From the sequence record NZ_CP027239.1: 64,000 bases of DNA. One strand, 5' to 3'. Under the pieces are notes generated by a model. It was given only the letters and a program-made list of their open reading frames with translations. It was not told the origin of the DNA and searched no databases. The translations under genes and the position numbers were made by a program. Of this stretch, positions 6,232 to 58,453 are shown piece after piece (position 1 is the first letter of the stretch; every line of letters starts with the position of its first letter). This stretch comes from a plasmid.

Positions 6232-6398
6232 AAATCTCAAATAACCTAGTTGTGTCATGCGTTTTGACCACACGTCGCTCTGTGGCGGACGAACAGGAAG
6301 GTAGGCATACCGTGGGTACCCAAAATCAGGCCAGAAGCGCCCAGAACCCCTCCGATTACGACCCCTTCGAGCTCGTTTTCGCGCCGCGCAGACCCCTG

Positions 6399-26479: not shown

Positions 26480-26700
26480 CGAAGCACCGCGGCCACCGCG
26501 TTGTTCACCACACAACGTGCGACCCTGCAGGCGAGACGAAGGAAACGGCGACCACCTAGAACTTCCCACTGCAGGCCACCAACCTGCAGAAAAAGAAGAA
26601 CCCGCCCCTGACGGGGACGGGAACTTCAGAAACCAGAAGCGGAAGATTCTCTCGGTTACCAGCCGATCCCGGTTACCAGCCGGGTTCCTCCGAACGCCAT
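26480..26700. repeat. iteron-like repeat region (candidate origin of replication)
   Basis: Direct repeats CGGTTACCAGCCG x2, GAACTTC x2, palindrome CTGCAGGCCACCAACCTGCAG and an A-rich tract; low GC3 shows it is non-coding. Confidence 0.45.
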
Positions 26701-26738
26701 CCAGATCGCTCGTTGCCGACCAAAGCAATGAGGTCCTT

Positions 26739-35255: not shown

Positions 35256-35825
35256 ATGTCCGCCGACAAGATTGCCCGGGCCTACGGAGCCCTCGCCGCA
35301 CGCGGCGAGAAGATCACCGTGCGAGCCGTTCAGCGAGAGGCGGGTGTGCGGATCGGGGAGGTGGCGACCTGGCTCCGCGAGCACACCCCCAGCGCCAGCG
35401 AGGACGTGCCGGAGGCCCCAGACCTGTCCGAGGCGATCGAGGCCATGTCCCAGGCGGTCTGGGCGGCGGCGTGGGTGAGGGCGGCCGAGCAGGCCGAACA
35501 GTCGGTGGCCGAGTCCCTCGCCGCGGCTCGGGAAGGTGAGGCTGCGGCGCTGGCCGCAGCAGAGCAGGCCAGCGCCGAACGGGACGATGCGGTCGCCGAG
35601 CGTAACCGGATCGCCGGCGAAGCAGATCGGCTGCGGCGCGACCTCGCTCAGGCGCAGCGCGAGCTCGAGGGTGCTCAGCGGGAGGCGCAGCAGGCTCTGA
35701 CGCGGGCTGAGGAGTCAGATCGGGCCCGGGTGCGCGCCGAGGCGACCTCGGACACCCTGCGAGAGGTTGTGGACGCGTTCCGGCGAGGCGAGACCGGCTC
35801 CGCGGCAGCGTCGGGCACCCCGTAG
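35256..35825 (+). CDS. KfrA-like DNA-binding coiled-coil protein
   Basis: N-terminus KIARAYGALAARGEKITVRAVQREAGVRIGEVATWLREH resembles the KfrA N-terminal DNA-binding domain; the rest is an Ala/Glu/Arg-rich coiled coil. Confidence 0.55.
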   Translation: MSADKIARAYGALAARGEKITVRAVQREAGVRIGEVATWLREHTPSASEDVPEAPDLSEAIEAMSQAVWAAAWVRAAEQAEQSVAESLAAAREGEAAALAAAEQASAERDDAVAERNRIAGEADRLRRDLAQAQRELEGAQREAQQALTRAEESDRARVRAEATSDTLREVVDAFRRGETGSAAASGTP

Positions 35826-36423: not shown

Positions 36424-39400
36424 CTATGCCGCAGCCTGCTCGTTGGCCTGGTCCTGCGCCAGGACGGCGATCCGTGCGGTGACGCGGTCGAGCTTGGCCT
36501 GCGCGTCGGTCAGCTCCTGCTCGCGGTCGAAGGTGAGCGAGTCGGCGACCGCGCGGAGCTGGTCGGCGTCGCGGCGCAACGCGTCGCGGCTGTCGTTGAG
36601 GCGGTTGATCTGCTCAGGCAGCCCCCTCGACCAGTCGTAGACGATCCGGTACAGCGCGTCAGCGAATCCGCTGGCAGAGCGGGGGACTGGACGGGGAAGG
36701 TCGAGGTGAGCCAGGACCGTTCCCCACCTGCACACCTGCACCGCGCGGCCCTTGCCGTACTCGGTGCGCTGCAGCGAGAGTTCGCCGAAGCGGTAGCGGC
36801 GGCTGTCGCGGCCCCGCAGGCTGCCGGCGGCCTCGTTGGCCTGCTCACGGGTCAGCGTGCGCTGGGTGTGCGTGAGGTTGGTGTGCACCCACTGCAGGGC
36901 CTGCGCGGCATCGTCTGCCCGGGCCGCAGAGTCCTCCCTGTGGCGGGCCTGGCTGAGCATGGCCTGCAGCTGCGCGCGGTGGGAGGCCCGGGCGATCTTG
37001 AGCTTCTGCACGGCCGCGGAGAGCGTGGCCTGCTCGATCAGTTCGGGGTGGCCGGTAGCTGCTGCGCTGACCTCGGCGAGGGAGACAGCGTCGCCGGAGA
37101 TGTCGAGGATTTCCCGATCCAACGGGGCGTTGGTGAACATCTGCTCGATCATCTGGTGCTTGCGGCGCACCGCGGCGGACACGAGCCCGTCGAAAGTGCC
37201 CTCGGTGACAACGGTGACGATGTCGACCGCCGGATTGAGGTTGCCCGGCCGCACCGCGCGACCTTCGCGCTGCCCCAAACTCGCCGCGGTCCAGGGCATA
37301 TCCACGTGATACAGCGCGCTGAGCCGGCGCTGCGCATTCACGCCGACGCCAGCCTTGGACGAACTGCCGAGCAGGACCGACACGCTGCCGACGCGGCACG
37401 CGGCGAACAGCTCCTCGCGCGCCTGAGTGGTGGCCGCCTCGTGAATGAACCGGATCCTCTCGGCCGGCAGCCCACGATCCACGAGCAGATCCCGCAGACG
37501 CCCATAGGTGCGGCCGTCGGGCCCGTGGGGCGATCCCAGGTCCAGGCACACCAGCTGGAACGTGCCGGTGGCGTCGCTGCCGGGGTAGCGGCGGTCGATG
37601 TTGGCCCAGTAGTGCTCGGCGATGCGATCGGCGGCCACGATCAGCTTCGGGGACGGCGCGTTGACGCCGACCAACTGGGGGTCCAGGGCCAGGGCGCGGC
37701 CGTCGTTGCACACCTTGAGAATGTTGTCGCCGCCGGGCTCGTTGCGGAACCCCTGCATCCGCAGCGCCTCGACCCGCTCCGACAGCGTGCGCATGTGCGC
37801 GATCTGGGCGGGGCTGGGCTTGGCGACCAGCAGGTGGCGGTTCACCTCGGGCCGCTCCAGGGGCAGTTCTGCGGAGGGCAGCATGTCGGTGAAGGCGCGC
37901 ATCATGGTTCGTGCTTCGGGGGCGTTGCGGATGCGGGCCGGGCGGGTGACAGCGCGAAGGTTCCCCCCGTCGGGCGAGGTTTCGATGACGGTCTCCCACT
38001 GGACGAAGGTGGCGGCCCAGGTGTCGAAGTTGCGACATTCCGCCTGGTCAAGCAGGGTGGGGGCGCAGATGCGCGCCCATACGAAAAGCTCCGAGAGGCT
38101 ATTTACAAACGGGGTGCCACTGCTGAGGGTCGCCACCGACCGGCCCGGGTACTTGGCGGCCAGGCTGGTGATCTTGATCAGCAGATCCAGGGCCCGCTGC
38201 GAGGTGCTGTTGCTCAGCCCGGACGTTCTCGTGGCGACGGGCAAGCCCTTGTAGAGGTGGGCCTCATCGACGCAAATATGGTCAACGGCCAGGTCGGCGA
38301 AGGTCAGAGCGTCGGGGTCATGGCGAGCCTCCCGCAGCGCGTCCATGCGGTTCTCCAGGGCGCGGCGGCGAGCGGCCAGCGCCTTGGCGCCACGAGTGCC
38401 GCCCTCGTCGCCGGACTGCAGCGCGGCCATCTCCTCGGCCAGGTAGGCCATCTCCACTTCGGGGTCCGCAGCCAGGGAGGTGAACAGCTCGTGGGAGACG
38501 ATCACCGCATCCCAATCACCGGCCGCGGCGCGGGCCACGAACTTGCGCTTGGCGCGGCCGGCGACCTGATCCTCAGTGGCGACAAGGAACTTCGCGGTAG
38601 GCCAGGTGGCGCGCGCTTCCCGGCTGAACTGAGCCAAAATAGGCTTCGGGACCGTGATAAGCGGCCGATTGGCCAGGCCGTATTCGCGCAGCTTAAGGCA
38701 CAATCCGACGAGCGTACGGGTCTTGCCGGCGCCGACTGAATGGGCCAAGTAGGCGGCCTGGTGTTCACACCGGAGTGCGTGGTCGATACCCCGCAGCTGG
38801 TTCTCCCACAGGGTCACCCCCGGCGCTATCGACGGGAACTGCAGATAGTCACCATTCGGACGCCTCGGGACCACCGAATTGTGCAGCCGGTTGTACCGCT
38901 CGCACGCCCGCTCGGCCCGCTGCGGATCCGACCACAGCCACACCGTGAACGCCTGCGTCAGCTCCACCAGGCGATCCGCCGCCAGCGCCGACTCCGAGGC
39001 GTTGCGTACCCGCCGCTCCCGCCGCGTCTCCGGGTCGGTGACCGTGTCGTACACGACCGGAGTCCCACCATTGAGGCCCGCGGTGACGATCTCGGCGACC
39101 GTCATCCGCGACGTCCCGTATCTGGTCTGAGCCTGCGCAGACGCCCCGCCGTAGCCGGTATCGACATCCCACGCCGCCACCGCCGGGGTGTACGACACCC
39201 GCGCATACCGGTAGCCCATCTCCTCCTCCAGGAACCGGGCGATGTCGCCGCCGGCCAGCCACGCCGCACCGAACGCGACACTGATCTCATCGGGCCCCAG
39301 CTGCGGCGGAAGTACCTCCTCCAACGCCTCGACGTTGCGCGCGAACGAGCCGTCGAACTGCGCCGCGGCCCGCGCCGTATCCAGCTTCGCCGCGATGTTG

Positions 39401-41124
39401 CCCGACAAGTACTCCTCGGCCGGCAGCAACGCCCCACCGTCGGGGTCGCGGAACGCCAGATCGCCCAACGCCTGGTCGACCTCGGTCTCGTCGATGGACA
39501 GCAGCGCGGCCACCGTCGACGGCACCAGCCGACCGTGACGGGCCAGCGACACCGTCACCGCCTCCCCGGCAGTGTCGACTCGGCGAATCGGCTCCGGCTC
39601 CCTGTTGGTGCGCTGCAGCAGGATCGGCGCCGGATGTGCGGTGTGGGTGGCCTCGTCGTACTGCTCGATACCGAATACGACCTCGGCCTGCGGGTCGGCC
39701 CGGAATCCGCCCATCCGCGGTCGCCGCGCGCGGCGAGTGGGCTCGCCCGTTGCCGGGTCGACCGGGCCGTCGACCACGCTCATCCTGTTCAACGGACCGT
39801 AGGAGGCCACGTACTGCCGGTACAGGTCCAGGGCGCGGGAGCGCAGCGGGTCCAGGACGGCGTCGGGGCTATGCCGCTTGGCTTCGGTCTCGATCAGCTC
39901 CAGCACGGCATCTCGCAGCTGCACCAGCGCCTGCAGCTCCGCGTTCTTCGCGCCGCGCGCGGGCACGAGAGCGCCGTCGACGACCTGATGGGCCAGCCCG
40001 TCGATCAGGTGAAACGAGCCCTCGGGGCGGCCTTCGGCGTCGACCAGGATCTCCGCATCGCGCCAAGACGGCTTGCCGTCGCTCTCGCCCCACGCCGGCA
40101 TGCGCTGCCCCAGCGCGGCGAACGCCCGGTCCAGCATCTCCGACGGCTTGCGGGTGACCACCGCCAGCGAATTGCGGAAGTGCCCGGTCGCCCGCATCTG
40201 GCCGGCCACCAACTCCGGGTTGTCGACGAAGAATCGCGATACCCGCACCGGCTGCACGCGGGCATCACCGGCCCGCACGGGCGTGTCGATCATCGCCGAC
40301 CCGAACGCCACCTGCTGCCGGTCACCGCCCTCGTCGAACGGCTGCCGGATCTGCAAAACCAGCAGGTCGGCGACAACATCCGTGCCCTCACCGGCAAACG
40401 CCTTCGACGGCAGCCGCACAGCGCCCACGAAGCGGGCCCGATCAGCGATCGCCGCCAGACCCTCCCGGCTGTCGAGGTGGAACCGGGAGGTGATGATCGC
40501 GACCAGGCCGCCCGGCCGCACCGCCTCAACCGCGCGCTGCAGGAAATAGCCGTGAAGGCTCGGGGCCGCGCCGTGCTTCGAGTGGATCCAGCCCGTGCCG
40601 AACGGCACGTTGCCCACCACCAGATCGAAACCCCCCGTCGGCAGGGTGACGTCCTGCAGCCGCTCACCCACGATGCGGGCCCGCGGATTGGCCAACTGGG
40701 CGATCTGCGCGGCCGTGGGGTCGATCTCCACCCCGTGGTAGTCGATGTCGAGCCCGTCGGGGCAGGCCAGAGCAAAGCGGCCGTGCCCGCACCCCAGGTC
40801 CAGCACCCGCCCGCCGGTGAACCCGGCATCGGACAGCAGGCTCCAGATCCGGCCAGCGACGTCCTCGCTGGTGTAGAAGGCGTTGTCGACCTGCTCGCTA
40901 CCGCGCGCCAACGCCTCCGCCCCCAGCAGTTCCTCCAACTGCTCGCCGATCCGCGCCCATGTCGCGGTCTGCTCCCGCTCAAAGATCGGGGCCAGCGGCC
41001 CCCAGCCGGGCCATGCCGCCAGCGCGGCGTGCTGCTCGGCCGTCAGCTCGTGACGGTTGGGCTTGGCGGCGAGCACCTGAGCGGCAGCGACAGCGGCGTG
41101 GCCGAACTTCGGCGAAGAGCTCAT
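36424..41124 (-). CDS. N6-adenine DNA methyltransferase fused to SNF2/DEAD-like helicase (1566 aa)
   Basis: N-terminal MTase motif I VLDLGCGHGRF and motif IV VGNVPFG. Helicase region has DEAH box (VDEAHLYKG), conserved helicase C-terminal motifs (QREGRAVRPGN) and a large C-terminal extension. Confidence 0.75.
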   Translation of the reverse strand: MSSSPKFGHAAVAAAQVLAAKPNRHELTAEQHAALAAWPGWGPLAPIFEREQTATWARIGEQLEELLGAEALARGSEQVDNAFYTSEDVAGRIWSLLSDAGFTGGRVLDLGCGHGRFALACPDGLDIDYHGVEIDPTAAQIAQLANPRARIVGERLQDVTLPTGGFDLVVGNVPFGTGWIHSKHGAAPSLHGYFLQRAVEAVRPGGLVAIITSRFHLDSREGLAAIADRARFVGAVRLPSKAFAGEGTDVVADLLVLQIRQPFDEGGDRQQVAFGSAMIDTPVRAGDARVQPVRVSRFFVDNPELVAGQMRATGHFRNSLAVVTRKPSEMLDRAFAALGQRMPAWGESDGKPSWRDAEILVDAEGRPEGSFHLIDGLAHQVVDGALVPARGAKNAELQALVQLRDAVLELIETEAKRHSPDAVLDPLRSRALDLYRQYVASYGPLNRMSVVDGPVDPATGEPTRRARRPRMGGFRADPQAEVVFGIEQYDEATHTAHPAPILLQRTNREPEPIRRVDTAGEAVTVSLARHGRLVPSTVAALLSIDETEVDQALGDLAFRDPDGGALLPAEEYLSGNIAAKLDTARAAAQFDGSFARNVEALEEVLPPQLGPDEISVAFGAAWLAGGDIARFLEEEMGYRYARVSYTPAVAAWDVDTGYGGASAQAQTRYGTSRMTVAEIVTAGLNGGTPVVYDTVTDPETRRERRVRNASESALAADRLVELTQAFTVWLWSDPQRAERACERYNRLHNSVVPRRPNGDYLQFPSIAPGVTLWENQLRGIDHALRCEHQAAYLAHSVGAGKTRTLVGLCLKLREYGLANRPLITVPKPILAQFSREARATWPTAKFLVATEDQVAGRAKRKFVARAAAGDWDAVIVSHELFTSLAADPEVEMAYLAEEMAALQSGDEGGTRGAKALAARRRALENRMDALREARHDPDALTFADLAVDHICVDEAHLYKGLPVATRTSGLSNSTSQRALDLLIKITSLAAKYPGRSVATLSSGTPFVNSLSELFVWARICAPTLLDQAECRNFDTWAATFVQWETVIETSPDGGNLRAVTRPARIRNAPEARTMMRAFTDMLPSAELPLERPEVNRHLLVAKPSPAQIAHMRTLSERVEALRMQGFRNEPGGDNILKVCNDGRALALDPQLVGVNAPSPKLIVAADRIAEHYWANIDRRYPGSDATGTFQLVCLDLGSPHGPDGRTYGRLRDLLVDRGLPAERIRFIHEAATTQAREELFAACRVGSVSVLLGSSSKAGVGVNAQRRLSALYHVDMPWTAASLGQREGRAVRPGNLNPAVDIVTVVTEGTFDGLVSAAVRRKHQMIEQMFTNAPLDREILDISGDAVSLAEVSAAATGHPELIEQATLSAAVQKLKIARASHRAQLQAMLSQARHREDSAARADDAAQALQWVHTNLTHTQRTLTREQANEAAGSLRGRDSRRYRFGELSLQRTEYGKGRAVQVCRWGTVLAHLDLPRPVPRSASGFADALYRIVYDWSRGLPEQINRLNDSRDALRRDADQLRAVADSLTFDREQELTDAQAKLDRVTARIAVLAQDQANEQAAA

Positions 41125-41414: not shown

Positions 41415-41975
41415 GTGACCGGCATGAGCGCACACATTGCAGACGAGGACGCCGTCACGATCACCGTCAACCTGCCCCTGCCGGTTGATGTCGCGGCGAC
41501 CCTGACCCGCGCGATCGGCGCCATCTGGCCGAACACCACCATGGACATGAGCAGCTACTCCAGCCGCATGACCTACCGGGTCACAGCTGCCGACCGCCTG
41601 GCTGACGACCTCGATCTCGAGCAGGTCCGCCAGGCGCGGATCGCGATGCGAGAAGAACTCGAAGGCATCATCACCCGAATCGGTGCTGGCGAGGTTGGCG
41701 GCATCCCCGCAGAGGAGTACCTCGTCTACGTGGCCGCGCTGGCCGAGGCTTTCCTCGACGAGCACGGCGCCGCGAACTACGTCGAGCAGATCCTGTCCAC
41801 CCCAGATGGCCGGCGGCTCACCGTCACCACCCATGGGGCACACGGGCAGACTCCAGTCGAGCACCGCAACGATGCGCGCGCGGAAGCCGCGCGGATGCAC
41901 CGCTTGGAGGCGCGACTGAGGGCCCGCATCGACGACCTGAAGCGCGAACTCGCGGTCGCGAACGGCAGCGCCTGA
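41415..41975 (+). CDS. hypothetical protein
   Basis: Clean ORF; C-terminal Arg/Ala helical region. Confidence 0.4.
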   Translation: MTGMSAHIADEDAVTITVNLPLPVDVAATLTRAIGAIWPNTTMDMSSYSSRMTYRVTAADRLADDLDLEQVRQARIAMREELEGIITRIGAGEVGGIPAEEYLVYVAALAEAFLDEHGAANYVEQILSTPDGRRLTVTTHGAHGQTPVEHRNDARAEAARMHRLEARLRARIDDLKRELAVANGSA

Positions 41976-42084
41976 ACCGGGCTAGCAGGCTCGTCACCGG
42001 CGGCGGTTCGACGCTGCTGCACCCCGCATCCGCACAGCGAGGATGGGGAACACCGCAAGACGAACCCAACCCCGGGAGGCTCCG

Positions 42085-42309
42085 ATGCCCTACACACACG
42101 ACGACGTCAGCACCGCCGCCAACGGCGCAGCGAGCATGCTCGACGGTCTCGGCTTGGACCCCGACACCGCGACGCTGATCGACTTCGTCGTCAACGCCAC
42201 CCTGACGCTGCTCGAGAACGGGGACGCGGGTATCGAGGACGTCCTCGAGGAAAACTGGGACGACAGCGAGGACCGCGACACCATTCGCACCATCGTCACC
42301 GGCAACTGA
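42085..42309 (+). CDS. hypothetical acidic protein (74 aa)
   Basis: ATG after GGGAGG RBS. Confidence 0.35.
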   Translation: MPYTHDDVSTAANGAASMLDGLGLDPDTATLIDFVVNATLTLLENGDAGIEDVLEENWDDSEDRDTIRTIVTGN

Positions 42310-42549
42310 GAGAGGCATCCTCAGGGGAGGGGCCACAGCCACTCCGCCGCGCCAACCCAAGGGGTACAGGCGCACAGCCTGGGGCTGATGTGGCTGCAAT
42401 TAACTTCTGAGGCTACGGCGGTAACACCCCCAGCGGGCCAAGCGATTCCGGCCTAGCGACTAGGAAAAAGTCAGCGCAACGCAACGGCATGACCGTGACT
42501 TACCCTGATCGCAGCACGACCCATCGGAATCACTGCAAGGAGCACCTTC

Positions 42550-42942
42550 ATGGACCCCATCACGCTTGCCATCATCGCGGGCCTGCTCAATGTAGGCCCA
42601 GCCGTGGGCGGCTCCGTGGCCGCCGCCGGACCGGCAGCCGCCGCCATCGCCCCCGCCGCCGCCTCCATCGCCCCCGCCGCCGCTGGCGCGGCTGCCACTG
42701 CGCCCATCTGGGTCCCAGCCGCCGGTACCGGTGCCGCTGTGGCCGCAGGCGCTGGCAGCCTGGGCGCGGGATCCGCAGTCGCCAGCAACCCGGTGGCCGC
42801 CCAGGGCGCCGAGGCATGGTTCAACGACATCAACAACCAGGCCGTCATCGGCTCGGTCGAGGCCAACAACTTCGTCGCCGACGGCCTCAACCCGCACCTG
42901 CCGCCGGAGCATCAGATTCCGAAGCGCACCATCGGGTACTGA
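42550..42942 (+). CDS. Ala/Gly-rich protein
   Basis: N-terminal hydrophobic segment followed by a low-complexity Ala/Gly/Pro region. Confidence 0.4.
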   Translation: MDPITLAIIAGLLNVGPAVGGSVAAAGPAAAAIAPAAASIAPAAAGAAATAPIWVPAAGTGAAVAAGAGSLGAGSAVASNPVAAQGAEAWFNDINNQAVIGSVEANNFVADGLNPHLPPEHQIPKRTIGY

Positions 42943-43150
42943 CCCCGGCACGAACACAGCAGTCGATGCGTAACGACCAGGGCTGGCCATCACACGGCCA
43001 GCCCTGGTCAGCATTTAACGACCCGCCAGCATCGCCATTGCTCCCGATGCAGCCCCGGCTCGACACGACGCGCCGGTAACATCCCCACCGCTGGACACAC
43101 TGGCTGTCCGCCACCCACGGCAGGCGAGCCCTCACGATCGGAGACAAACT

Positions 43151-43327
43151 ATGGGCGCACTCGGCGCAATACTCACCTCGGTAGCCGCAGCCATGGGCTC
43201 CGTTGCTGTCGGCGTCGGCGGCTGGAGCCTAGTCGCGACGGCAGTCAACAACGACGGCATCTGGCACGGCCTACCGATCGAACTCCAAACCGCGATCCGC
43301 GACGCGGGTCTGGCCCCGGGCCGCTAA
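43151..43327 (+). CDS. small hydrophobic peptide (58 aa)
   Basis: Below the track cutoff; ATG after GGAGA RBS; Gly/Ala-rich predicted TM segment. Confidence 0.3.
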   Translation: MGALGAILTSVAAAMGSVAVGVGGWSLVATAVNNDGIWHGLPIELQTAIRDAGLAPGR

Positions 43328-43444
43328 CCCCATGCGCAGCTCCGGCCGCCCCTGTCCACCCGACCAGGTGGACTGGGGCGGCCGGCCTCATTTCCGCCAG
43401 AGCCCCATCTCCGAACCGCGAACCGCCCACCCGGAGGTCCACGA

Positions 43445-43702
43445 ATGAAGCCGCTCGACGTGATCGCAGACATTGTCAGCGGCCCGTCCCTGCAAGGTGC
43501 TGCCTGTGTCGGCAAAGCCCCCCTGTTCGACGCTCGAGCCGACGGTGAACCCCGGGCCTCGTACCTGCGTCGCTACCGGCAAGCCGCCAGCATTTGCCGA
43601 ACCTGCCCTGTCCTTGAACGGTGCGATCAGGCGGCTAACGACGCCCCTGCCGGCCAATGCACCGGCATCTGGGCCGAACGCCGCTTCGGTCGCGGCGCGT
43701 AA
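43445..43702 (+). CDS. WhiB-like (Wbl) iron-sulfur transcription factor
   Basis: Four Cys (C-x27-C-x2-C-x5-C), the first in AACVG and the rest in CRTCPVLERC, plus a GIWAE turn motif. Confidence 0.7.
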   Translation: MKPLDVIADIVSGPSLQGAACVGKAPLFDARADGEPRASYLRRYRQAASICRTCPVLERCDQAANDAPAGQCTGIWAERRFGRGA

Positions 43703-43758
43703 CGGAAGTCGGGCTCGCGCCACCACGCCGACCAGGACGGGTGGCACGATCCTGTCGC

Positions 43759-46284
43759 ATGACCGCATTGATGATCGACGGTGCCGGCAGCCTCGACCGC
43801 GACGACGCGGTGACGGTGACGGAGCGCGGAGACGGCTGGGATGCAACCGTGTACGTGGCCGCCGTCGCCGATGTCGTCCCCCTCGGGTCGCCAGCAGATC
43901 GGTCAGCCTTGGCCCGGGTGCACACCCGCTACCGGCGCAGCGGAGTGAAACCCATGCTCGGACGAGAACTCGAGGACGCAGCCACACTGTCGTCCACCCA
44001 GCCGCGGCCCGTGGTGGCCATCGGCATGCGGTTCACCAACGACGGCAGCCTGACCGCGTCGTCCATCTCCCGCGACCTGCTGCCCGCCGGCGCCGCAATC
44101 GCCTACACGCACCAGCAGGTGGGGGCCGCCCTCTCCCCGAACTCAACCGATCCGCAGCGTGCCCAACTCAGTGCCGCGTACCGGCTGGCCAGGACGCTAA
44201 TAGCCGCCCGGCGGGCGGCCGGGGCATTCGCAGTCTTCGACGCAGCTCGCGGCATGGTCACCAGCGAAGAAGGCCAGCTGGTGGCCATGCAGTCCGGTCA
44301 GACTCCGGCCGCCTACCTGATCGTCCAAGAGCTGATGGTGGCCGCGAACGCGACGCTCGCACGGTGGGCCATCGAACTGGAACTGCCGATCCTGTTCCGC
44401 AATCACGTCCGATCGGCCGTCGCCCCGCCCGCGGACGCCCTGCTCGCCGACGTCGCCGCTGAACTGTCCGCCTCACCGGTGATGACGCCAGACGCCCTGC
44501 AGGCCCTCACCGCCCGGGTCAATCAGACGCTTCGCCCGGCGACGTACCAACCGGTGGCCATCGGTCACTTCGGCCTGCAGATTCCCGCCTACGCTCACGC
44601 CACATCCCCGCTGCGCCGCTACGCCGACCTCGTCACCCAGCGTCAGGTCCTGGCCCAGCTCGACGGTCTGGAGCCGCCGTACGCCCCGTCAGTGCTCGAC
44701 GACATCGCCGAGGCCATCAACAGCACCCTGCGCGACCGGGCCCAGCAGATTTCAGCGACGGCGTCGGCAACACGCCGCAAGCAAGCGGCCACCACCATCG
44801 CCTCCGGCGACTACACGCACACGCACGGCCGCGACTGGCTGCGCGTACTGAGGATCGCCGCCGACACAGCCCTGCCTCCCTCGCTCGCGACAGAGGTGCG
44901 CCGGCGGGCCGACGCCGGCGAACTGGACGGCGGGCAGCTGGCCGTGATGATGCGGGCGACCGGGCATGGGTGGCCGGGACTGCTCGAGCAGGTGATCGCC
45001 GCCGCGCGCCGGGTCACACCGCATGCCGCAGCCTCGACGATTTCCGCCTGGCACCAAGCCGAGGACGACGACCGGCCCGCGCCGCAGGCCGAGTACCGGC
45101 AGGACGGGCCGCCGCACGACCCAACCTTCACTGCACGGGTGACGTTCGCTGGGGTCGCCTCCTCGTGGACGTCCGCGGCGTCGAAGAAACTGGCAGAGAG
45201 GGAGGCCCTGTGGGAGATCGTTGAAGTGCTGGCCGGCGTGAGGGACGCCCCGACGCCGGCAGACCCGCCCCAGGTGGGCGACACCGGCCTCGCCCGGCAG
45301 CCGGCAGACCAGGCAACCCCAGAGGGGGCGCCGGTGGAGCTGGAGACACTGTCCGGCAAGGGCTGGCTTCGGGCCGCGCGGGCCTTGATCTCCGACCCGG
45401 CCGGCCGAGAAGACGAGCTGGCCCGCGAGCTGCGGCGCCGCGCCGACGACGGCACCCTGGAGCCCCCAGTGGTGGCAGCCCTGCTGGCAGACGACTCAGG
45501 CAGGTGGTGGCCGCTGCTGGGGGAGCTGGTGGCCACGATGCGCACCACGGCACCGCACGCCGCCAATTCGACCCTGTCGGCGTGGCAGCAACTACGCGGC
45601 GCCCCGGTTGGCTCCCCAGATCTGGAGGTGCGCCAGTTCGGCACGCCGCATGCCCCGTTGTTCGCCATCCGCGCCCGACTCCAGCAGTGGTTGACCTCGT
45701 GGCAGTGCGGCCACGCCAAGAAGGCGGCGGCGACTCAGCAGGCGCTATGGGACCTCGTGGACGTGATCGCAGGCAACGCCCCTCCCGGGGCCGTCGACGA
45801 CGCACCGACTGCCCCCGAGCTCGAGGCCGCCGCCGACAGGGAAAACGGCAAGACGATCGCCCTGGCCCACCTCAAGAGGGGGACCGGACGGGCAGCAGTT
45901 CCGCCTCACGCCGAAGGGCCGCTGATGTCATCGCCCGCCGAGGTCACAGCCAGCGCCCCGCCGCTGGCCCACACCGAGGTGCCCGCCCAGGTGCGCGAAC
46001 ACGCTGCCCTGGTAGCGGCCCTGGGAGGCACACCCACCGAAAGGGCCAAGAAGTACCGCAATGCCGTGAAATCGCCGACCGCCTGGATCAACAACCTGGC
46101 AGCAGTCCTGCACAGCGACGCCCCGGAGGTGGACACCACCAGCATCGAGGGCGGCTACACAGCCACGATCACGATCAACACCCCGGTAGGGGCAGTCGTC
46201 GGCAGTGGGGCCGGCACCAACCAGAAGACCGCCCGCGCAGTCGCTTCGCTGGGGATCGTGCTCCACCTGTTCTCCCTGACCTAA
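43759..46284 (+). CDS. RNB-domain (RNase II/R-like) exoribonuclease with C-terminal tandem dsRNA-binding domains
   Basis: RNB motif I IDGAGSLDRDDAV and HFGLQIPAYAHATSPLRRYADLVTQRQ. Two clear dsRBD signatures, GPPHDPTF...SKKLAEREALWEIVEVL and GTPHAPLF...GHAKKAAATQQALWDLVDVI, plus a weaker third. Start at ATG 43759, not the track start 43657, which overlaps the whiB-like gene. Confidence 0.7.
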   Translation: MTALMIDGAGSLDRDDAVTVTERGDGWDATVYVAAVADVVPLGSPADRSALARVHTRYRRSGVKPMLGRELEDAATLSSTQPRPVVAIGMRFTNDGSLTASSISRDLLPAGAAIAYTHQQVGAALSPNSTDPQRAQLSAAYRLARTLIAARRAAGAFAVFDAARGMVTSEEGQLVAMQSGQTPAAYLIVQELMVAANATLARWAIELELPILFRNHVRSAVAPPADALLADVAAELSASPVMTPDALQALTARVNQTLRPATYQPVAIGHFGLQIPAYAHATSPLRRYADLVTQRQVLAQLDGLEPPYAPSVLDDIAEAINSTLRDRAQQISATASATRRKQAATTIASGDYTHTHGRDWLRVLRIAADTALPPSLATEVRRRADAGELDGGQLAVMMRATGHGWPGLLEQVIAAARRVTPHAAASTISAWHQAEDDDRPAPQAEYRQDGPPHDPTFTARVTFAGVASSWTSAASKKLAEREALWEIVEVLAGVRDAPTPADPPQVGDTGLARQPADQATPEGAPVELETLSGKGWLRAARALISDPAGREDELARELRRRADDGTLEPPVVAALLADDSGRWWPLLGELVATMRTTAPHAANSTLSAWQQLRGAPVGSPDLEVRQFGTPHAPLFAIRARLQQWLTSWQCGHAKKAAATQQALWDLVDVIAGNAPPGAVDDAPTAPELEAAADRENGKTIALAHLKRGTGRAAVPPHAEGPLMSSPAEVTASAPPLAHTEVPAQVREHAALVAALGGTPTERAKKYRNAVKSPTAWINNLAAVLHSDAPEVDTTSIEGGYTATITINTPVGAVVGSGAGTNQKTARAVASLGIVLHLFSLT

Positions 46285-46421
46285 AAGCCAAGCCCGCAGC
46301 CGCGGCCGAGCTGTCCGGCGTCGGCCGCTCCACGGGCCACGGCATCACGGCCGCGAGACCACAATTCAAGAACGCAGGGAGATCCTGACGGCGCTACCCA
46401 CCCCGCCCTCAGGAGGTCACA

Positions 46422-46763
46422 GTGACCCTCACCGACCCCATCCGCCCGCCGGCGCCAGCCCGCGACGTCGAGCGCATCGTCTGCCCCACCTACGCCGACG
46501 TCGTGCATCTCATGCGCAGCTACCGGCACCATCAACTGGTCACTGCTGGCGCCCTCGCTGATCGAGACCAGGCCCAGCACCTCATCGGCAAGAGGCTCGC
46601 CAATGCCGGCCGCCCACTCGCCGGCACAGTCGTGGTCACCTCACACCAGCAGCGACTGCTGGCCTTCCACGGAGACATCAGCGCCGTCGACGGGCTGGCG
46701 ATTGAGTTCACCAACGGTGGCCAACTGCCCATGAATAGGCTGGTCGCGGTCGGTATCTGCTGA
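46422..46763 (+). CDS. small hypothetical protein, paralog family C copy 2
   Basis: C-terminus FHGDISAVDGLAIEFTNGGQLPMNRLVAVGI matches the family C motif. Confidence 0.5.
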   Translation: MTLTDPIRPPAPARDVERIVCPTYADVVHLMRSYRHHQLVTAGALADRDQAQHLIGKRLANAGRPLAGTVVVTSHQQRLLAFHGDISAVDGLAIEFTNGGQLPMNRLVAVGIC

Positions 46764-46835
46764 ACTGCTGCAGTCCCGCACGGCGGGTGGATCGTAGGGG
46801 CATCAGAAACAAGCCCACCCCCCAGGGAGCACGCC

Positions 46836-47195
46836 ATGGACACGATCGCCTTCGCCGCCCTCGCAGGAATCGTCGCTGACATCGACCCCACCGCGGTCGT
46901 GCAGACCTGCCCGCAGCGATCCGAGACCGCCGCCCACGACCTGGCCGACCAGATGCCGCACTCGATGCACATCGCACTCGACGCCCAGGACCGCCGGGCC
47001 ACGCTTCCCGCCAAGATCACCGACCGCATCGGCGCGAACTGGGGACGTGTGCCCGCCGTGGTCATCGCCCGAAGCCCGCGCGGCGACTTCTACGCCTTCA
47101 TCGGCGACATCGTCGGGGTCGACACCTTCACCCTGCAGTTCGCCAATGACCTCCGCGTCCCCCTCGGCCGCGTCGTCGCCGTCGGCCTGGACTGA
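46836..47195 (+). CDS. small hypothetical protein, paralog family C copy 3
   Basis: C-terminus FIGDIVGVDTFTLQFANDLRVPLGRVVAVGL. Confidence 0.5.
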   Translation: MDTIAFAALAGIVADIDPTAVVQTCPQRSETAAHDLADQMPHSMHIALDAQDRRATLPAKITDRIGANWGRVPAVVIARSPRGDFYAFIGDIVGVDTFTLQFANDLRVPLGRVVAVGLD

Positions 47196-47503
47196 TCGCA
47201 CCCCGAGCCAGCACCCGAAGGGGGCGGTGGCCCGCAGTTCCCCCGCCCCAGTCGGGTACCAACCTCCAGCGGGGCCCTGTGCCCAGTGGGGCAATGGGGC
47301 CGGTTGGGTACAAATGACCCAATGGGGCCAACCTGCCGACGCTAGAGACAAGTCGCTGATGTTCTGGAGCCGTAGACGGGGCATGCCGGGACTGTTGGCC
47401 CAACCCACTGGGCAGGAACTAGCCTGGAAAGCGCTTGACAGTACTGCTCTCCTACAGGTCAGTTAGGCACCTTTCGAGATCGAGCTGCCGCTCGATCTCG
47501 ACA

Positions 47504-47545
47504 ATCCCGGCCCTCCGGCAAGAGGGCCGGGATTGACTATTTTGC
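47504..47545. terminator. bidirectional rho-independent terminator
   Basis: Perfect 12-bp stem ATCCCGGCCCTC/GAGGGCCGGGAT with 7-nt loop followed by TGACTATTTTG; preceded by a second hairpin TCGAGATCGAGC/GCTCGATCTCGA at 47474-47501. Confidence 0.6.
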
Positions 47546-49589: not shown

Positions 49590-51282
49590 GCCAGTTCAGG
49601 TCCGCTGATGGGGCGGGTTCGGCGGGATAATTGTCGTCATGGGCGAGGAAGGGTTGTTCGCCGCCGAGGAGTTCCGCGTCGAGCGGGCTGACCGGCAGGG
49701 CGAGGTCGAGCCGGTGGGCGCAGGCAAGACATTTCGGGCGTTCGACCCGGGCCAGGGGTTGTTGCTGCCGCCGTCGCTGGATGACTGGCTTCCGGCCGAT
49801 CATCTGGCACGGTTCGTGGCGGATCTGGTCGATGAGCACCTGGATTTATCGCGGATCTACGTCTCCTACCAGGAGGGGCGCGGGGCCCCGCCGTACGATC
49901 CGCGGTTGATGGTGCGGTTGCTGATCTTCGGCTACACCACGGGGGTGCGCTCCTCCCGCGGGATCGAGAAGGCCTGCACCGACATCGTCGCTTTCCGGTG
50001 GTTGGCGGCCGGGGCGGCCCCGGACTACCGCGCGATCGCCAGGTTTCGCAAGAGGCACCTGGCCGCGCTGGGCAACCTGTTCTTGCAGGCGTTGGCGTTG
50101 TGCCAGGCCGCCGGGATGGTCACGCTTGGACAGGTCGCGCTGGATGGGACGAAGCTGCGGGCGAACGCCTCCAAACGCAAGGCCATGTCGTACGCGCGGC
50201 TGACGGACAAGGAGAAGGTACTGGCCCAGGAGGTCTCCGATCTGCTGGCCGCCGCCGAGGCCATCGACAAGGCCGAGGACGCCAAGTTCGGCAAGAACCG
50301 GCGCGGGGACGAGCTGCCCGATGAGCTGGCCCGCCGAGAGTCTCGCCTGGTCAAGCTGCGCCAGGCCAAAGCTGCTCTGGAAGCCGACGCCGCCGCCGAT
50401 GCGGCGGAGAAGGCTGAGGCTAAGGCCCGCGGTAAGGGCGAAGACGAAGACACCGTCGCGCAGAAGGCCGCTGAGGCCGCCGAGCGCGCCACGCCCAGGC
50501 CGAAGGCCCAGCGCAACTTCACCGACCCGGAGTCGAAGATCATGCTCACCGGGGACGGGTCGTTCGCTCAGTGCTACAACGGCCAGGCCGTGGTCGATGC
50601 CGCCCATCAGATCATCGTGGCGGCCGAGGTCAACGACTGTGCCGCCGACGTCGGCAACCTCATCCCCATGACCGAGCAGGCCATCAGCAACACGGGGCAG
50701 GCCCCGAAGCAGATGCTCGCCGATGCCGGGTACTGCTCAGCCGCGAACCTCGCCGCCTCCGCCGAGGTCACCGGCGAGCAGGGCACCGAGTTCTTCATCG
50801 CCACCGGACGACAGCGCAGCGGGGAACCGGCGCCGATCGCCCCCCGGGGACCGATCCCGGCCAGCGCCACGGACAAGCAGCGCATGGCCCGCAAGCTCGC
50901 CACGAAGAAAGGCCGAGCGGTCTACGCCCGGCGCAAAGCGATCGTCGAACCGGTCTTCGGACAGATGAGCACCCTGCAGAACGGCAAGCAACTCCTGATT
51001 CGCGGTCTGGACGCCGCCCGCGGTGAATGGCTACTGCTCGCTGCCTGCCACAACCTGCGAAAGCTCCACGGTCATATCGGCGCCACCGGGCTCGGCGGCC
51101 TCCAGATCGCCTGAACTGGCAGGCCCGGGCGACCTACAGGCTGACCCGCGGACTGAACGCCATCACCGCGGCTTCGCAAACCGAATACCTGGCCGCCAGT
51201 GACGCCGGCCCGAGCGCAACGCTCTCACGCACTCCGCCGTACTCTCGGCGCGCTTCGAGCCATTACTGACCCATGCTCCTAG
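49568..51282 (+). mobile_element. IS1182-family insertion sequence
   Basis: 20-bp terminal inverted repeats CTAGGAGCGTGGGTCAGTAA (left) and TTACTGACCCATGCTCCTAG (right), with one mismatch; one 491-aa transposase inside. Confidence 0.8.
49639..51114 (+). CDS. IS1182-family DDE transposase
   Basis: Motifs FDPGQGLLLPPSLDDWLPADHLARFV, IYVSYQEGRGAPPYDPRLMVRLLIFGYTTGVRSSRGIEKAC and a C-terminal DDE region; Ala/Glu-rich linker. Confidence 0.8.
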   Translation: MGEEGLFAAEEFRVERADRQGEVEPVGAGKTFRAFDPGQGLLLPPSLDDWLPADHLARFVADLVDEHLDLSRIYVSYQEGRGAPPYDPRLMVRLLIFGYTTGVRSSRGIEKACTDIVAFRWLAAGAAPDYRAIARFRKRHLAALGNLFLQALALCQAAGMVTLGQVALDGTKLRANASKRKAMSYARLTDKEKVLAQEVSDLLAAAEAIDKAEDAKFGKNRRGDELPDELARRESRLVKLRQAKAALEADAAADAAEKAEAKARGKGEDEDTVAQKAAEAAERATPRPKAQRNFTDPESKIMLTGDGSFAQCYNGQAVVDAAHQIIVAAEVNDCAADVGNLIPMTEQAISNTGQAPKQMLADAGYCSAANLAASAEVTGEQGTEFFIATGRQRSGEPAPIAPRGPIPASATDKQRMARKLATKKGRAVYARRKAIVEPVFGQMSTLQNGKQLLIRGLDAARGEWLLLAACHNLRKLHGHIGATGLGGLQIA

Positions 51283-56695: not shown

Positions 56696-57027
56696 ATCGC
56701 CTGGACCGACGTCACCTCGGCGCCTGTCGTGTTCGCGCCCAGCAGGGCCGTGTCGCTGCCGGTGGCGTACATCTCGACGATGTCGGCACTGAACTTCTCG
56801 ATGAGCTCGCCGGAGAGCTCCTCGCAGAACGGCACCACCACATCCCGGCCGAAACGGCAGACCCGGCCGATGTCGGGCACGGGAGCCCCACACTGGCGGG
56901 CCCACACATACGCGGCCGTAGCCACGCGCCTGGACTCAGCGAACCCACCGGGCCCGGAAACCGTCACCAGCAGTGTCGTTGCCTCCCCGACCTGGGTCGG
57001 GCGCGCCCACCGGGGAAGCCCGGTCAC
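56692..57027 (-). CDS. hypothetical protein, translationally coupled downstream of MoxR-like ATPase
   Basis: Start overlaps the ATPase stop (ATGA on minus strand). Confidence 0.4.
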   Translation of the reverse strand: MTGLPRWARPTQVGEATTLLVTVSGPGGFAESRRVATAAYVWARQCGAPVPDIGRVCRFGRDVVVPFCEELSGELIEKFSADIVEMYATGSDTALLGANTTGAEVTSVQAI

Positions 57028-58304
57028 TGCAGCTCCTGCTGCACCAGTGGCCCGACGGGCGAGCCGAACACCTCGACCAGGACGTCGAGCACCTCAGGCT
57101 GGTGCTGCGGCTCCGGGCACGCAGCGAACAGCATCGACGCCGCGACTTGGACGCCCATCCCCATGTCGAGAGCCTTCTGCGACTTGAGCAGATGGTCAGT
57201 TTGGGGCGCCCACCCTGGCCGGCGCCCGGACTGGCCCGCCACCGCGGCCCGCGCAGCCAGCAGCCGGCCCACGCGGACCAGGCGGGCATCGACACCCAGT
57301 TCGGCCACGAGGCCGTAGTCAGTGGTGGCTTCGAGCTGCAGAGGAAAGCGGCGCAGAATTGCCGCATCGAGGGGCCGCACACCGACCCCGGTCTGGTTGT
57401 AGGTGACGACGATGTGGAATCCGTCGGCGGCGTGCAGCACCGGCTCGTCGGGCAGTGCGTCGATGACGAGCATCCGACGGTCGTCGGCGGGGCCCATGAG
57501 CACGTTGATCGTGTCGGATGGCGCTCGAGTCAGATCGTCGATCAGCAGCACCTTGCCCTGACGCATGGCCTCGGCCAGTGGGCCGTACGCGAACCGGTAC
57601 CCGGGACCGTCTTCGCGCGGGATCCACTTACCGACCAGGTCATCGACGGCCAGGTCGCCGTGCCCTTCGACGACAATCAGGTCTTCTCCGAACGCCGCCT
57701 CGGCGAGCATGGTCTTGCCGTTGCCCGACGCGCCCACGATGCGGGTGAACAGGGAGCCACGCGCCTGGCGCAGGATCTGCACATCGGTAGTGTCGCCGAC
57801 CGGCCGGGGACGGTAGACGCGCCCGTCGCGCAGTGGCACCGACTCCAGCGGGCCGGCGAAGCTGGCGGGTGTGGACGAGGGGGAGGGCTGGACCGGTTCG
57901 GGATCCGGTGTCGCCTCTAATTCCGGCACCGCGAGGGCCGCCTGAACACTGCCTTCCAGGTCACCGAGCATCGACGCGGCCGGGGGCGATCCCTCCAGCA
58001 GCTGCACCAACTGCTCGTGCGTGGGTCCTTCATCGTCGACCTGCAGGTAGGCCACATCGGCGAACGCCCGCGCGGGCGCCGCCTCGGTGAACGCCTCCCC
58101 GGCCTCTTTGCTCAGCAGGGACGCATCCGCCGAGAGCATCAGCCCCGACTGCCCTCGGTAAGCGGCCACCAGTTGCGGGCCGGCCTCCGGGTCACACCAC
58201 AGCAGCATCGCATCGGGCTGGCCTGCGCCGCGGGGCGCCTTGCCCCTACGTCTCCACCAGGCGACGGGCAGCGTGGTGGTCAGGGCAGTGGCAGTCGAGG
58301 TCAT
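57024..58304 (-). CDS. MoxR-like AAA+ ATPase
   Basis: Walker A VGASGNGKT, Walker B VLLIDDL and an AAA lid region. Start taken at Met278 of track ORF 57024..59135; the upstream part is Arg-rich artefact. Confidence 0.65.
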   Translation of the reverse strand: MTSTATALTTTLPVAWWRRRGKAPRGAGQPDAMLLWCDPEAGPQLVAAYRGQSGLMLSADASLLSKEAGEAFTEAAPARAFADVAYLQVDDEGPTHEQLVQLLEGSPPAASMLGDLEGSVQAALAVPELEATPDPEPVQPSPSSTPASFAGPLESVPLRDGRVYRPRPVGDTTDVQILRQARGSLFTRIVGASGNGKTMLAEAAFGEDLIVVEGHGDLAVDDLVGKWIPREDGPGYRFAYGPLAEAMRQGKVLLIDDLTRAPSDTINVLMGPADDRRMLVIDALPDEPVLHAADGFHIVVTYNQTGVGVRPLDAAILRRFPLQLEATTDYGLVAELGVDARLVRVGRLLAARAAVAGQSGRRPGWAPQTDHLLKSQKALDMGMGVQVAASMLFAACPEPQHQPEVLDVLVEVFGSPVGPLVQQELQ

Positions 58305-58453
58305 GGGCGGGGATCCTTCATCGTGTCGGAGTGCGCGGCTAGGGTGTGGCGCCCAGTATGCGGGGCCACTGTGGCGGTGTGGCACCACAGCGGCACGGGC
58401 GCAGGGCACCATCACTGGCACCGCAAACCGCCTACCCCTGGAGCTGTTTCCCC

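Follow-up and report, generated by a model that had tools for sequence, protein, structure and literature searches.

In RNase II and RNase R, the domains CSD1, CSD2 and S1 form a single-strand clamp above the catalytic channel and decide which RNAs enter; RNase II, for which CSD and S1 are the anchor, stalls at duplexes. In RNase III, ADAR and the Dicer partners, dsRBDs are the targeting device. Structured RNA is a substrate of RNase R, whose RNB domain attacks duplexes by itself (PMC5714204). Here we describe a plasmid-encoded protein from a 64,000-nt window (the whole stretch of DNA analysed, from record NZ_CP027239.1) that joins an RNB domain to dsRBDs. The 841-aa product is 100% identical to P0001, the "RNB domain-containing ribonuclease" of Dietzia cinnamea. 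The start at 43759 is backed by the N-termini of homologues, the NCBI record and gene calls on six contigs; a longer start at 43657, where the full open frame begins (43657-46284, + strand), would overlap the 3' end of whiB and was dropped, since the N-termini of homologues and every gene call favour 43759. We propose, with a probability of roughly 55%, that the protein is an autonomous, Mg2+-dependent, hydrolytic 3'-5' RNB exoribonuclease that is recruited by its dsRBDs to duplex or strongly structured RNA.

Features of the nuclease locus (positions are those of the window; aa, residues of the protein)
Feature	Coordinates	Strand	Remarks
GC-rich hairpin, 18-bp	43342..43385	+	separates upstream 58-aa ORF from WhiB-like gene
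WhiB-like gene (85 aa)	43445..43702	+	Pfam Whib (PF02467), E 2.9e-6, 28.1 bits vs cut-off 23.6
RNB-dsRBD exoribonuclease gene	43759..46284	+	841 aa plus stop; predicted product
RNB catalytic domain (aa 1-349)	43759..44805	+	Pfam RNB; long helix aa 310-349 at end
4-helix bundle 1 (aa 357-419)	44827..45015	+	
dsRBD1 (aa 423-491)	45025..45231	+	Q433, GPPH, SKK motifs
4-helix bundle 2 (aa 533-597)	45355..45549	+	duplicate of bundle 1; AF2 helices 533-597
dsRBD2 (aa 601-670)	45559..45768	+	SAWQQ, GTPH, AKK motifs
dsRBD3 (aa 773-838), degenerate	46075..46272	+	GPxH loop missing; NQKTAR kept at helix 2 start
Two paralogous small ORFs	46422-46763 (113 aa), 46836-47195 (119 aa)	+	same co-directional block as RNB gene
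Intrinsic-terminator-like hairpin, strong	47502..47535	+	14-bp stem, 10 GC pairs, then T-rich tail

An RNB domain followed by helix bundles and dsRBDs

Starting at residue 2, with no CSDs on its N-terminal side, the RNB domain matches Pfam RNB (PF00773) over profile positions 8-324 of 326 (E 1.8e-49; 169.2 bits, cut-off 29.3). Motif I, IDGAGSLDRDDA, contributes D7, D13, D15 and D16, and motif IV, TSPLRRYADL, contributes R286 and R287; each of these catalytic residues is either invariant or conserved in at least 90% of 52 homologues. D15 aligns with D280 of E. coli RNase R, which phmmer recovered from the PDB at E 2.3e-23, pairing IDGAGSLDRDDAV with IDGEDARDFDDAV, and the top Foldseek matches for the domain were RNase R structures (8cdv_C, 2.6e-17; 5xgu, 7e-17). 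Thus, the motif I aspartates and motif IV arginines are present and align to those of RNase R, as expected from an earlier note on this DNA, which had called the RNB motifs intact. Scores fell below equivalog level with the NCBIfam models of both RNase R (TIGR02063, 133.2 bits against a cut-off of 597.85; NF008648, 77.6 against 982) and RNase II (TIGR02062, 53.7 against 641.9; NF003455, 63.7 against 542). That note had also set the protein apart from canonical enzymes with S1 and CSD domains, and rightly so: Pfam searches of the 841-aa protein gave no match to S1, CSD2 or OB_RNB even at E <= 1, whereas the canonical RNase R and RNase II proteins retrieved in the homologue search do have them. 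Foldseek also matched yeast Ssd1 (7am1, E 2.5e-11), which raises the idea of a pseudonuclease, catalytically dead or purely RNA-binding; however, with the four motif I aspartates and the motif IV arginines present and conserved family-wide, we regard this as highly improbable.

Two good dsRBDs and one weaker one were found downstream of the RNB domain, as the note had claimed, but the tail that carries them is about 490 aa rather than the claimed 350 or so, because a 4-helix bundle precedes each of the first two dsRBDs. The second bundle+dsRBD module is a tandem duplicate of the first (39% identity over about 140 aa). Profile searches placed dsRBD1 above the Pfam dsrm (PF00035) cut-off (27.8 bits against 23, E 3.8e-6; 25.6 bits as an isolated segment), and it alone among the three passes this curated dsRBD threshold; dsRBD2 and dsRBD3, searched singly, had no Pfam match and are recognised instead by profile matches to the PDB. 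The dsRBD2 profile found only the dsRBDs of ADAR1 and ADAR2, and these weakly (E 0.16-1.5); with the dsRBD3 profile, the top nine matches were all dsRBD proteins, among them Staufen1 (E 0.0075), ILF3, RDE-4, MLE, XlrbpA and PACT. AF2 modelled dsRBD2 and dsRBD3 (the latter with a pLDDT of about 90) as alpha-beta-beta-beta-alpha, in agreement with the alpha1-beta1-beta2-beta3-alpha2 order of the dsRBD fold; the relative placement of domains in the model is unreliable, because its pTM is 0.65.

The RNA-contact regions differ among the three domains. In dsRBD1 and dsRBD2 the glutamine, the GPxH loop (GPPH and GTPH, respectively) and the lysine pair (SKK and AKK) are all in place, whereas dsRBD3 lacks GPxH and has QKTAR only. 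Conservation among the type-A dsRBDs does not extend to the third Lys of KKxxK. Judged by inspection, the counterpart of dsRBD3 appears to be the canonical C-terminal dsRBD (NPVxWL...GPPHxPxFT...KxAAK) of 590-660-aa homologues; having no GPxH loop, dsRBD3 could be a protein-interaction (type B) domain.

An actinobacterial protein family, frequent on plasmids

The earlier note had suggested a search for the same fusion elsewhere, and this revealed a sizeable family of RNB+dsRBD proteins, whose named members encountered were all from Actinomycetota. When the 50%-identity clusters that match the cassette are ranked, 116 of the best 150 contain RNB, and members are frequent on plasmids of Rhodococcus, Gordonia and Mycolicibacterium. 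The Dietzia clade is set apart from the others by its duplicated bundle+dsRBD module. Chromosomal members also exist, for example in Natronosporangium amid ordinary-looking genes, and the family is therefore not strictly a mobile-element gene. As for the note's remark that the architecture was not recognised as described, our literature search found no paper describing an RNB-dsRBD fusion, but databases already annotate the family automatically, and the architecture is not a one-off.

The mobile-element setting assigned to the gene at first reading agrees both with these plasmid homologues and with the window itself, which encodes KfrA_N, a resolvase, an IS, an MmeI-type restriction-modification enzyme, a RES toxin and an AEP-primase-like gene, together with an AAA_5 ATPase and a 1566-aa methyltransferase-helicase (with weak DrmD/BrxH-like matches). 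A tRNA-Ala called by ARAGORN at 58784-58870 is probably spurious, as it falls within the 703-aa AAA_5 ORF. Megablast of the locus DNA against PLSDB gave no match. True family members were found on IMG/VR contigs in 5 of the 80 loci of the viral contig scan; judged by the Pfam content of their neighbours, these contigs may be phages or plasmids. A contig scan with a whole-family alignment keyed on generic RNB motifs (TSP[LI]RRY...) and yielded mostly ordinary RNase R/II loci; its sole family member was L010, from Streptomyces. The only tblastn matches among deposited phages were distant RNB proteins that lack a dsRBD tail, none of them in an actinophage, so an origin as a phage gene was dropped.

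All-against-all comparison of 21 loci revealed no neighbour family conserved across genera, the sole exception being a ligase shared by 3 loci. The neighbourhoods are heterogeneous and often include genes of DNA maintenance or metabolism (ParAB, ATP-dependent/LigD ligase, topoisomerase, dnaG primase); one relative's locus has type I restriction-modification genes, DUF932 and a YqaJ-RNase_T protein. PADLOC-DB 2.0 gave 0 families at E <= 0.01 for the nuclease and for the WhiB-like protein. With no conserved neighbour and no PADLOC match, defence, regulation and antisense copy-number control, all roles raised for this gene, remain conjecture. An effector of conflict systems, that is, a plasmid anti-phage (abortive-infection-like) or anti-defence nuclease aimed at duplex RNAs of invaders or of host defence (e.g. 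crRNA, antitoxin RNA or retron RNA), would fit the defence-type genes in the window, the restriction-modification genes beside the relative and the occurrence on five IMG/VR contigs. However, the PADLOC result, the lack of a conserved sensor or partner gene, the prevalence of DNA maintenance genes in otherwise varied neighbourhoods and the lack of a deposited actinophage with the gene all weigh against this explanation, which we consider unlikely. Doubtful, too, is a wider version in which RNB-dsRBD proteins would be a dedicated dsRNA/antisense-clearing system, borne by actinobacterial plasmids and large mobile elements as a weapon or shield in element-host-phage conflicts, the Dietzia triple array being tuned to long duplexes and the SNF2 proteins described below marking a wider A-form-sensing pathway in actinobacteria; such a system might, for example, destroy invader dsRNA or remove the duplex RNAs by which host immunity is triggered or guided.

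The complete cassette of 4-helix bundle, dsRBD-A and dsRBD-B also occurs at the N-terminus of SNF2/DUF3670 proteins of Streptomyces and Kitasatospora (e.g. WP_266328513.1), which its profile matches over all 142 positions with E values of 1e-23 to 1e-37. This fusion to SNF2 DNA translocases raises the possibility that the cassette binds an RNA:DNA hybrid or another A-form structure instead of pure dsRNA. The enzyme could then process hybrids (R-loops or primers) for replication or transfer of the element, with the cassette reading the A-form hybrid and RNB removing the RNA strand, and both the presence of the identical cassette on DNA-dependent ATPases and the DNA-metabolism genes often found beside family genes are consistent with such a role. 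Those neighbourhood links are not conserved, however, and the canonical contact motifs of dsRBDs recognise the 2'-OH groups of both strands and as a rule favour dsRNA, which makes hybrid processing quite improbable.

The WhiB-like gene and the transcription block

The WhiB-like gene does lie directly upstream of the nuclease gene, as claimed; the two are on the same strand, 56 bp apart. Its product has both the Whib profile match and the cysteine pattern (C21, C51, C54 and C60; C-x29-C-x2-C-x5-C). Wbl proteins have a G[VI]WGG beta-turn and a basic C-terminal tail; here, GIWAE stands where G[VI]WGG is usual, and the tail is short (RRFGRGA). The TGIWA variant is also found in the WhiB-like neighbours of Gordonia. 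Upstream, the hairpin at 43342..43385 is strongly predicted by RNA folding (dG -45.9 kcal/mol, z = -5.5; 0 of 200 shuffles equally stable) and may be a terminator or attenuator that makes whiB-RNB a separate transcription unit, or else a structured-RNA element. The hairpin at 47502..47535 ends the co-directional + strand block (41415-47195). The two small ORFs within this block resemble each other (40% identity over 53 aa, E 5e-10), and homologues lie 3' of the RNB gene in locus L099, their conservation downstream of RNB being limited to Dietzia. Pfam and PDB searches with them gave no match; with no such similarity and a Dietzia-only distribution, their candidacy as a trans-acting OB/S1 substitute or an immunity protein was set aside.

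The spacing, the shared strand and the strong upstream hairpin would suit a WhiB-coupled module in which a WhiB-like Fe-S protein works jointly with the nuclease, for instance in redox-controlled RNA turnover or antisense-RNA control of plasmid copy number. So would the two Dietzia loci that keep a WhiB-like gene near an RNB gene whose products are only 69% identical (in Dietzia sp. 179-F, a 55%-identical orthologue is 5' of the RNB gene), and three Gordonia plasmids on which a WhiB-like gene abuts or overlaps the RNB gene 3' end. Nevertheless, a functional link of the kind the note had envisaged was not supported across the family. A WhiB-like gene is adjacent or nearby in 5 of 16 loci (the window and L001 taken as a single locus), and only in Dietzia and Gordonia; the pairing is absent from the other 11 (in Rhodococcus, Mycolicibacterium, Natronosporangium, Sphaerisporangium and L100), as well as from the Streptomyces locus L010. 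The gene is upstream of RNB in Dietzia and downstream in Gordonia, and the proteins of the two genera have only a 27-aa Cys-motif core in common, so that the pairing may have arisen independently. In addition, WhiB-like genes are generally common on mobile elements of actinobacteria, and neither an antisense RNA nor a replication-control element came to light. Thus, the WhiB-like gene is a clade-local neighbour only, and we hold a WhiB-coupled module to be decidedly unlikely.

Proposed mode of action and comparison with known systems

The observations above concern domain composition, intact catalytic and RNA-contact motifs, family distribution and the lack of a conserved partner; that the RNB-dsRBD protein is catalytically active and prefers dsRNA, and whatever role it has in the cell, we infer as follows. 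The substrate-recruiting domains of the RNase II/R type have been exchanged for dsRBDs; the Dietzia clade has three of these, one of them degenerate and the other two complete in their canonical RNA-contact motifs. The dsRBDs would dock on A-form duplexes of roughly at least 16 bp, such as sense/antisense pairs and long stem-loops, and so raise the local concentration of RNB at the duplex 3' end, where the RNB domain, having no CSD/S1 cap, could thread and then degrade the strand. Because no partner gene is conserved, the nuclease gene probably acts alone. In Actinomycetota, Mycobacteriales among them, it is an accessory gene that plasmids and other mobile elements carry. Of the member groups, mycobacteria are documented to lack both RNase R and RNase II (PMC12767347). 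The accessory gene therefore probably enables the element or its host to clear duplex or highly structured RNA, and host RNA turnover could change when such a plasmid is acquired. Altered turnover would be relevant to the megaplasmid biology of Rhodococcus, Gordonia and Mycolicibacterium, and the enzyme might also serve as a dsRNA-directed exonuclease tool.

The closest known relative in both structure and sequence, and the best NCBIfam model for the Dietzia protein, is bacterial RNase R (E. coli Rnr, 5xgu; B. subtilis, 8cdu/8cdv; M. genitalium, 7did), with which it shares the RNB fold and motifs. RNase R, however, has an N-terminal HTH/CSD1/CSD2 and a C-terminal S1 and basic tail, in place of which the Dietzia protein has the helix-bundle+dsRBD cassette, and is a housekeeping enzyme, whereas the RNB-dsRBD gene is borne on plasmids and mobile elements. 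E. coli RNase II (2ix0/2ix1/2id0) and a short RNase II-family protein of Deinococcus radiodurans (2r7d) also have the RNB domain and catalytic residues in common with it, but the likeness to RNase II is weaker (54-64 bits with NCBIfam, Foldseek rank 32) and RNase II has no dsRBDs; 2r7d demonstrates that trimmed domain sets do occur in this family. The Dietzia protein may thus be viewed as a natural swap of the CSD/S1 clamp for dsRBDs, and as a test case for how targeting domains set the substrate choice of RNB enzymes.

An enzyme core combined with one or more dsRBDs, which bring it to A-form duplexes, is likewise found among RNase III, ADAR2, Staufen, TRBP/Loqs and MLE/DHX9, which share the dsRBD fold, GPxH and KK. 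Their cores differ, RNase III being an endonuclease, ADAR2 a deaminase and MLE/DHX9 a helicase, whereas that of the Dietzia protein is RNB, predicted to be of the processive exonuclease type. A further difference from RNase III and the eukaryotic tandem-dsRBD proteins is the family-specific 4-helix bundle ahead of each type-A dsRBD. The actinobacterial SNF2/DUF3670 helicases have the same cassette as the RNB-dsRBD family and are likewise uncharacterised, but their enzymatic part is a DNA-dependent ATPase, whereas that of the RNB-dsRBD family is an RNA exonuclease domain.

The catalytic core and the dsRBD tail

The ORF listing for this locus shows two genes in the same direction, one encoding 85 aa (43445-43702, +) and then a long ORF (43657-46284, +). 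The ATG at 43759 is the supported start of the second, giving an 841-aa protein: this product matches P0001, a Dietzia cinnamea "RNB domain-containing ribonuclease", from end to end at 100% identity; the same start was called on six independent contigs; and the N-termini of homologues align there. Profile, motifs and fold all place the protein in the RNB superfamily. The Pfam RNB match begins at residue 2 (E 1.8e-49) and thus, together with the domain matches, leaves no CSD before the catalytic domain and no S1 after it; canonical RNase R/II relatives from the same homologue search carry S1, CSD2 and OB_RNB. The protein retains all motif I aspartates (D7, D13, D15 and D16 in IDGAGSLDRDDA) as well as motif IV (TSPLRRYADL); across 52 homologues their conservation is complete or no lower than 90%, and they align one to one with the matching motifs in E. 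coli RNase R. Foldseek also ranked RNase R first (8cdv_C, 2.6e-17; 5xgu), followed by RNase II, Dis3L2 and Rrp44, and after these RNB enzymes the tandem-dsRBD proteins MLE, Loqs-PB and R2D2. The RNB core is intact and nearest to RNase R, and a pseudonuclease is highly improbable.

A confident AlphaFold model built from the family alignment (pLDDT 89.8, pTM 0.65) depicts the tail as dsRBDs strung together flexibly. The RNA-contact motifs appear complete in two of them. The three canonical contact regions (helix-1 Q, GP(P/T)H and KK) are retained in dsRBD1 and dsRBD2, and the GPxH loop is lost from dsRBD3. Pfam dsrm gave one match above threshold, to dsRBD1; as isolated segments, neither dsRBD2 nor dsRBD3 passes Pfam. 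Against the PDB, the dsRBD2 profile matched ADAR1/2 best, albeit weakly (E 0.16-1.5), and the dsRBD3 profile Staufen1, also weakly (0.0075), then ILF3, RDE-4, MLE, XlrbpA and PACT. Thus, the earlier note was accurate in describing intact RNB motifs without the canonical S1/CSD domains and two clear dsRBDs with a weaker third, and profile searches, with dsRBD1 above the Pfam threshold and weak best hits to dsRBD proteins for the other two, favor the fold it proposed. Its tail of roughly 350 aa was too short: a family-specific helical bundle accompanies each of the first two dsRBDs, so the non-catalytic part is about 490 aa.

Distribution of the family and of the cassette

A word-indexed protein search returned approximately 79 cluster representatives with RNB and dsrm, named members being from Dietzia, Gordonia, Rhodococcus, Phytomonospora, Sphaerisporangium, Natronosporangium, Actinomadura, Glycomyces, Stackebrandtia and Amycolatopsis. 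The usual member has 590-660 aa and comprises RNB, bundle, dsRBD-A and a canonical C-terminal dsRBD-B (NPVxWL...GPPHxPxFT...KxAAK); a few have an extra N-terminal dsRBD. The Dietzia protein elaborates on this plan in a lineage-specific way: its clade (P0001-P0012, 830-873 aa) has a duplicated bundle+dsRBD-A module.

The earlier note suggested looking for the fusion in other actinobacterial plasmids or phages. In PLSDB, 105 records gave tblastn matches (including Rhodococcus, 37; Streptomyces, 5; Gordonia, 4; Mycolicibacterium, 4; Mycobacterium, 2), with up to four places per record, counted as matches to the query with or without a dsRBD tail. Some of the Rhodococcus megaplasmids, a group that includes NC_008269.1 of R. 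jostii RHA1, have several places each, which suggests paralogue expansion. No near-identical plasmid DNA was found for the locus, and among deposited phages no actinophage carries a member. Five large IMG/VR contigs (93-437 kb) do, among mixed phage-like and plasmid-like neighbors. The family genes are thus frequently carried on mobile elements.

When the bundle+dsRBD-A profile was used for an exhaustive HMM search, 454 clusters at 50% identity were obtained (E <= 1e-10). Among the best 150 of these, 116 have RNB, 13 are proteins of 1200-1550 aa, and about 17 are short (206-433 aa), so that stand-alone proteins with the cassette apparently exist. All six long proteins scanned with Pfam are SNF2/DUF3670/Helicase_C ATPases with an N-terminal cassette of 4-helix bundle, dsRBD-A and dsRBD-B, and the four clusters looked up all come from Streptomyces or Kitasatospora. 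Judged from these architectures, the cassette is a mobile nucleic-acid-targeting module, with RNB its commonest partner, rather than an RNB-specific tail. The SNF2 fusions, along with DNA-metabolism genes as neighbors, would also fit an enzyme that processes RNA:DNA hybrids, although we consider this role improbable.

Mobile setting and neighboring genes

The window is a segment of a mobile element, as the earlier note had it, with a resolvase, an IS, an MmeI-type enzyme, a RES toxin and KfrA_N (Table). The 727-aa protein may be the replication initiator. The IS insertion is recent, since the site is empty in other D. cinnamea contigs with the identical locus. An 87-nt tRNA-Ala(GGC) called by ARAGORN (58784-58870, +) lies inside the AAA_5 ORF on the opposite strand and is probably a false positive. 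The 1566-aa protein resembles large methylase-helicases found on conjugative elements and has weak PADLOC matches to mad2, BrxHI/II and DrmD. The two small proteins 3' of the nuclease share 40% identity across their C-terminal 53 aa, have homologues downstream in Dietzia sp. 179-F, and have no similarity in Pfam or PDB; one has a weak AbiEi-like PADLOC match (E 4.8e-4). PADLOC has no model for the nuclease or the WhiB-like protein, and a conflict-system effector is an unlikely reading.

The 85-aa protein exceeds the Pfam WhiB threshold (28.1 versus 23.6 bits) and has four cysteines (C21/C51-x2-C54-x5-C60), but its turn reads GIWAE rather than the usual GVWGG. We surveyed WhiB-like genes near family members by motif scan and annotation. 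In D. cinnamea the gene lies 56 bp 5' of the RNB gene; the Dietzia sp. 179-F locus, whose RNB is 69% identical, has an orthologue (55% identity) upstream, separated by a 102-aa ORF. On three Gordonia plasmids, with phage-like genes nearby (Gp37/Gp68 family), the WhiB-like gene is longer and either adjoins or overlaps the RNB 3' end, and a MerR gene is upstream, with an additional 154-aa ORF between MerR and RNB in L090. Dietzia and Gordonia WhiB-likes have just a 27-aa core in common. No adjacent WhiB-like gene was found in five Rhodococcus, two Mycolicibacterium, or the Natronosporangium, Sphaerisporangium, Streptomyces and L100 loci, and all-against-all comparison of 21 loci revealed no neighbor family common across genera except an ATP-dependent ligase (three loci). 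Thus, the WhiB neighbor is confined to individual clades, and the nuclease behaves like a gene that stands alone, without an obligatory partner. The WhiB coupling proposed earlier is not borne out, and a WhiB-coupled regulator or copy-number control is a doubtful role, somewhat less likely than a conflict effector. The hairpin just 5' of the WhiB-like gene, between upstream small ORFs and whiB-RNB, may act as a terminator or attenuator; its length would also suit it as a ligand for a dsRBD, which makes autoregulation conceivable.

Table. Features of the window, the nuclease and related loci
Feature	Position	Strand	Remarks
Resolvase	6252-7106		
MmeI-family type IIL restriction-modification enzyme	19486-22308	-	Complete; all five MmeI domains matched; methyltransferase domain E 4.7e-74
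727-aa AEP-primase-like region + HTH	26517-28700	+	
RES-domain toxin	29607-30251	+	E 4.5e-13
KfrA_N	35256-35825		
1566-aa methyltransferase + WH_1/DUF8437/Helicase_dom	36424-41124	-	Divergent from nuclease block
Co-directional block holding nuclease	41415-47195	+	Divergent from methyltransferase-helicase gene
Near-perfect 18-bp GC-rich hairpin	43342-43385	+	dG -45.9 kcal/mol, z -5.5
Paralogous 113- and 119-aa proteins	46422-46763, 46836-47195	+	Directly 3' of nuclease
Strong putative terminator	47502-47535		Closes + strand block
IS transposase (DUF772 + DDE_Tnp_1)	49639-51114	+	
AAA_5 ATPase, 703-aa ORF	57024-59135		Opposite strand to tRNA call
RNB domain	aa 1-349		AlphaFold model
First 4-helix bundle	aa 357-419		AlphaFold model
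dsRBD1 (alpha-beta-beta-beta-alpha)	aa 423-491		AlphaFold model; disordered linker after
Second 4-helix bundle	aa 533-597		AlphaFold model
dsRBD2 (alpha-beta-beta-beta-alpha)	aa 601-670		AlphaFold model; second disordered linker after
Helices	aa 726-771		AlphaFold model
dsRBD3 (alpha-beta-beta-beta-alpha)	aa 773-838		AlphaFold model
Segment corresponding to the cassette of SNF2 fusions P0131, P0144, P0159, P0205, P0240, P0244	44812-45237		Window coordinates
Conserved MerR - RNB-dsRBD - WhiB-like trio	L007 7402-10381; L090 3899-7359; L095 5401-8333		Gordonia plasmids

Proposed activity and relation to known ribonucleases

We propose, with a probability of roughly 0.55, that the protein is an uncapped RNB exonuclease delivered to duplex RNA by its dsRBDs. 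These would dock onto A-form duplexes and bring the RNB domain up to the 3' end of the duplex, so that plasmids would supply in trans an exonuclease acting on sense/antisense duplexes or on long stem-loops. We are far less sure of any particular biological role. A literature search found no published description of the architecture, in agreement with the earlier note; however, some members are named "DRBM domain-containing protein" in UniRef, so automatic annotation already sees it. The family is real, sizeable and uncharacterized, yet visible in automatic annotation. Nothing in these findings yet indicates a new principle. For RNA-decay specialists, the domain swap and plasmid carriage in hosts such as mycobacteria, from which RNase R and RNase II are both missing (PMC12767347), would be noteworthy. 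The protein is itself neither RNase R nor RNase II, because its equivalog scores fall far short of the cut-offs and tests for the CSD and S1 domains that define those enzymes found neither. It shares the catalytic core of RNase R but not the CSD/S1 clamp, whereas with RNase III it has in common, in concept, the type of targeting domain, the dsRBD.
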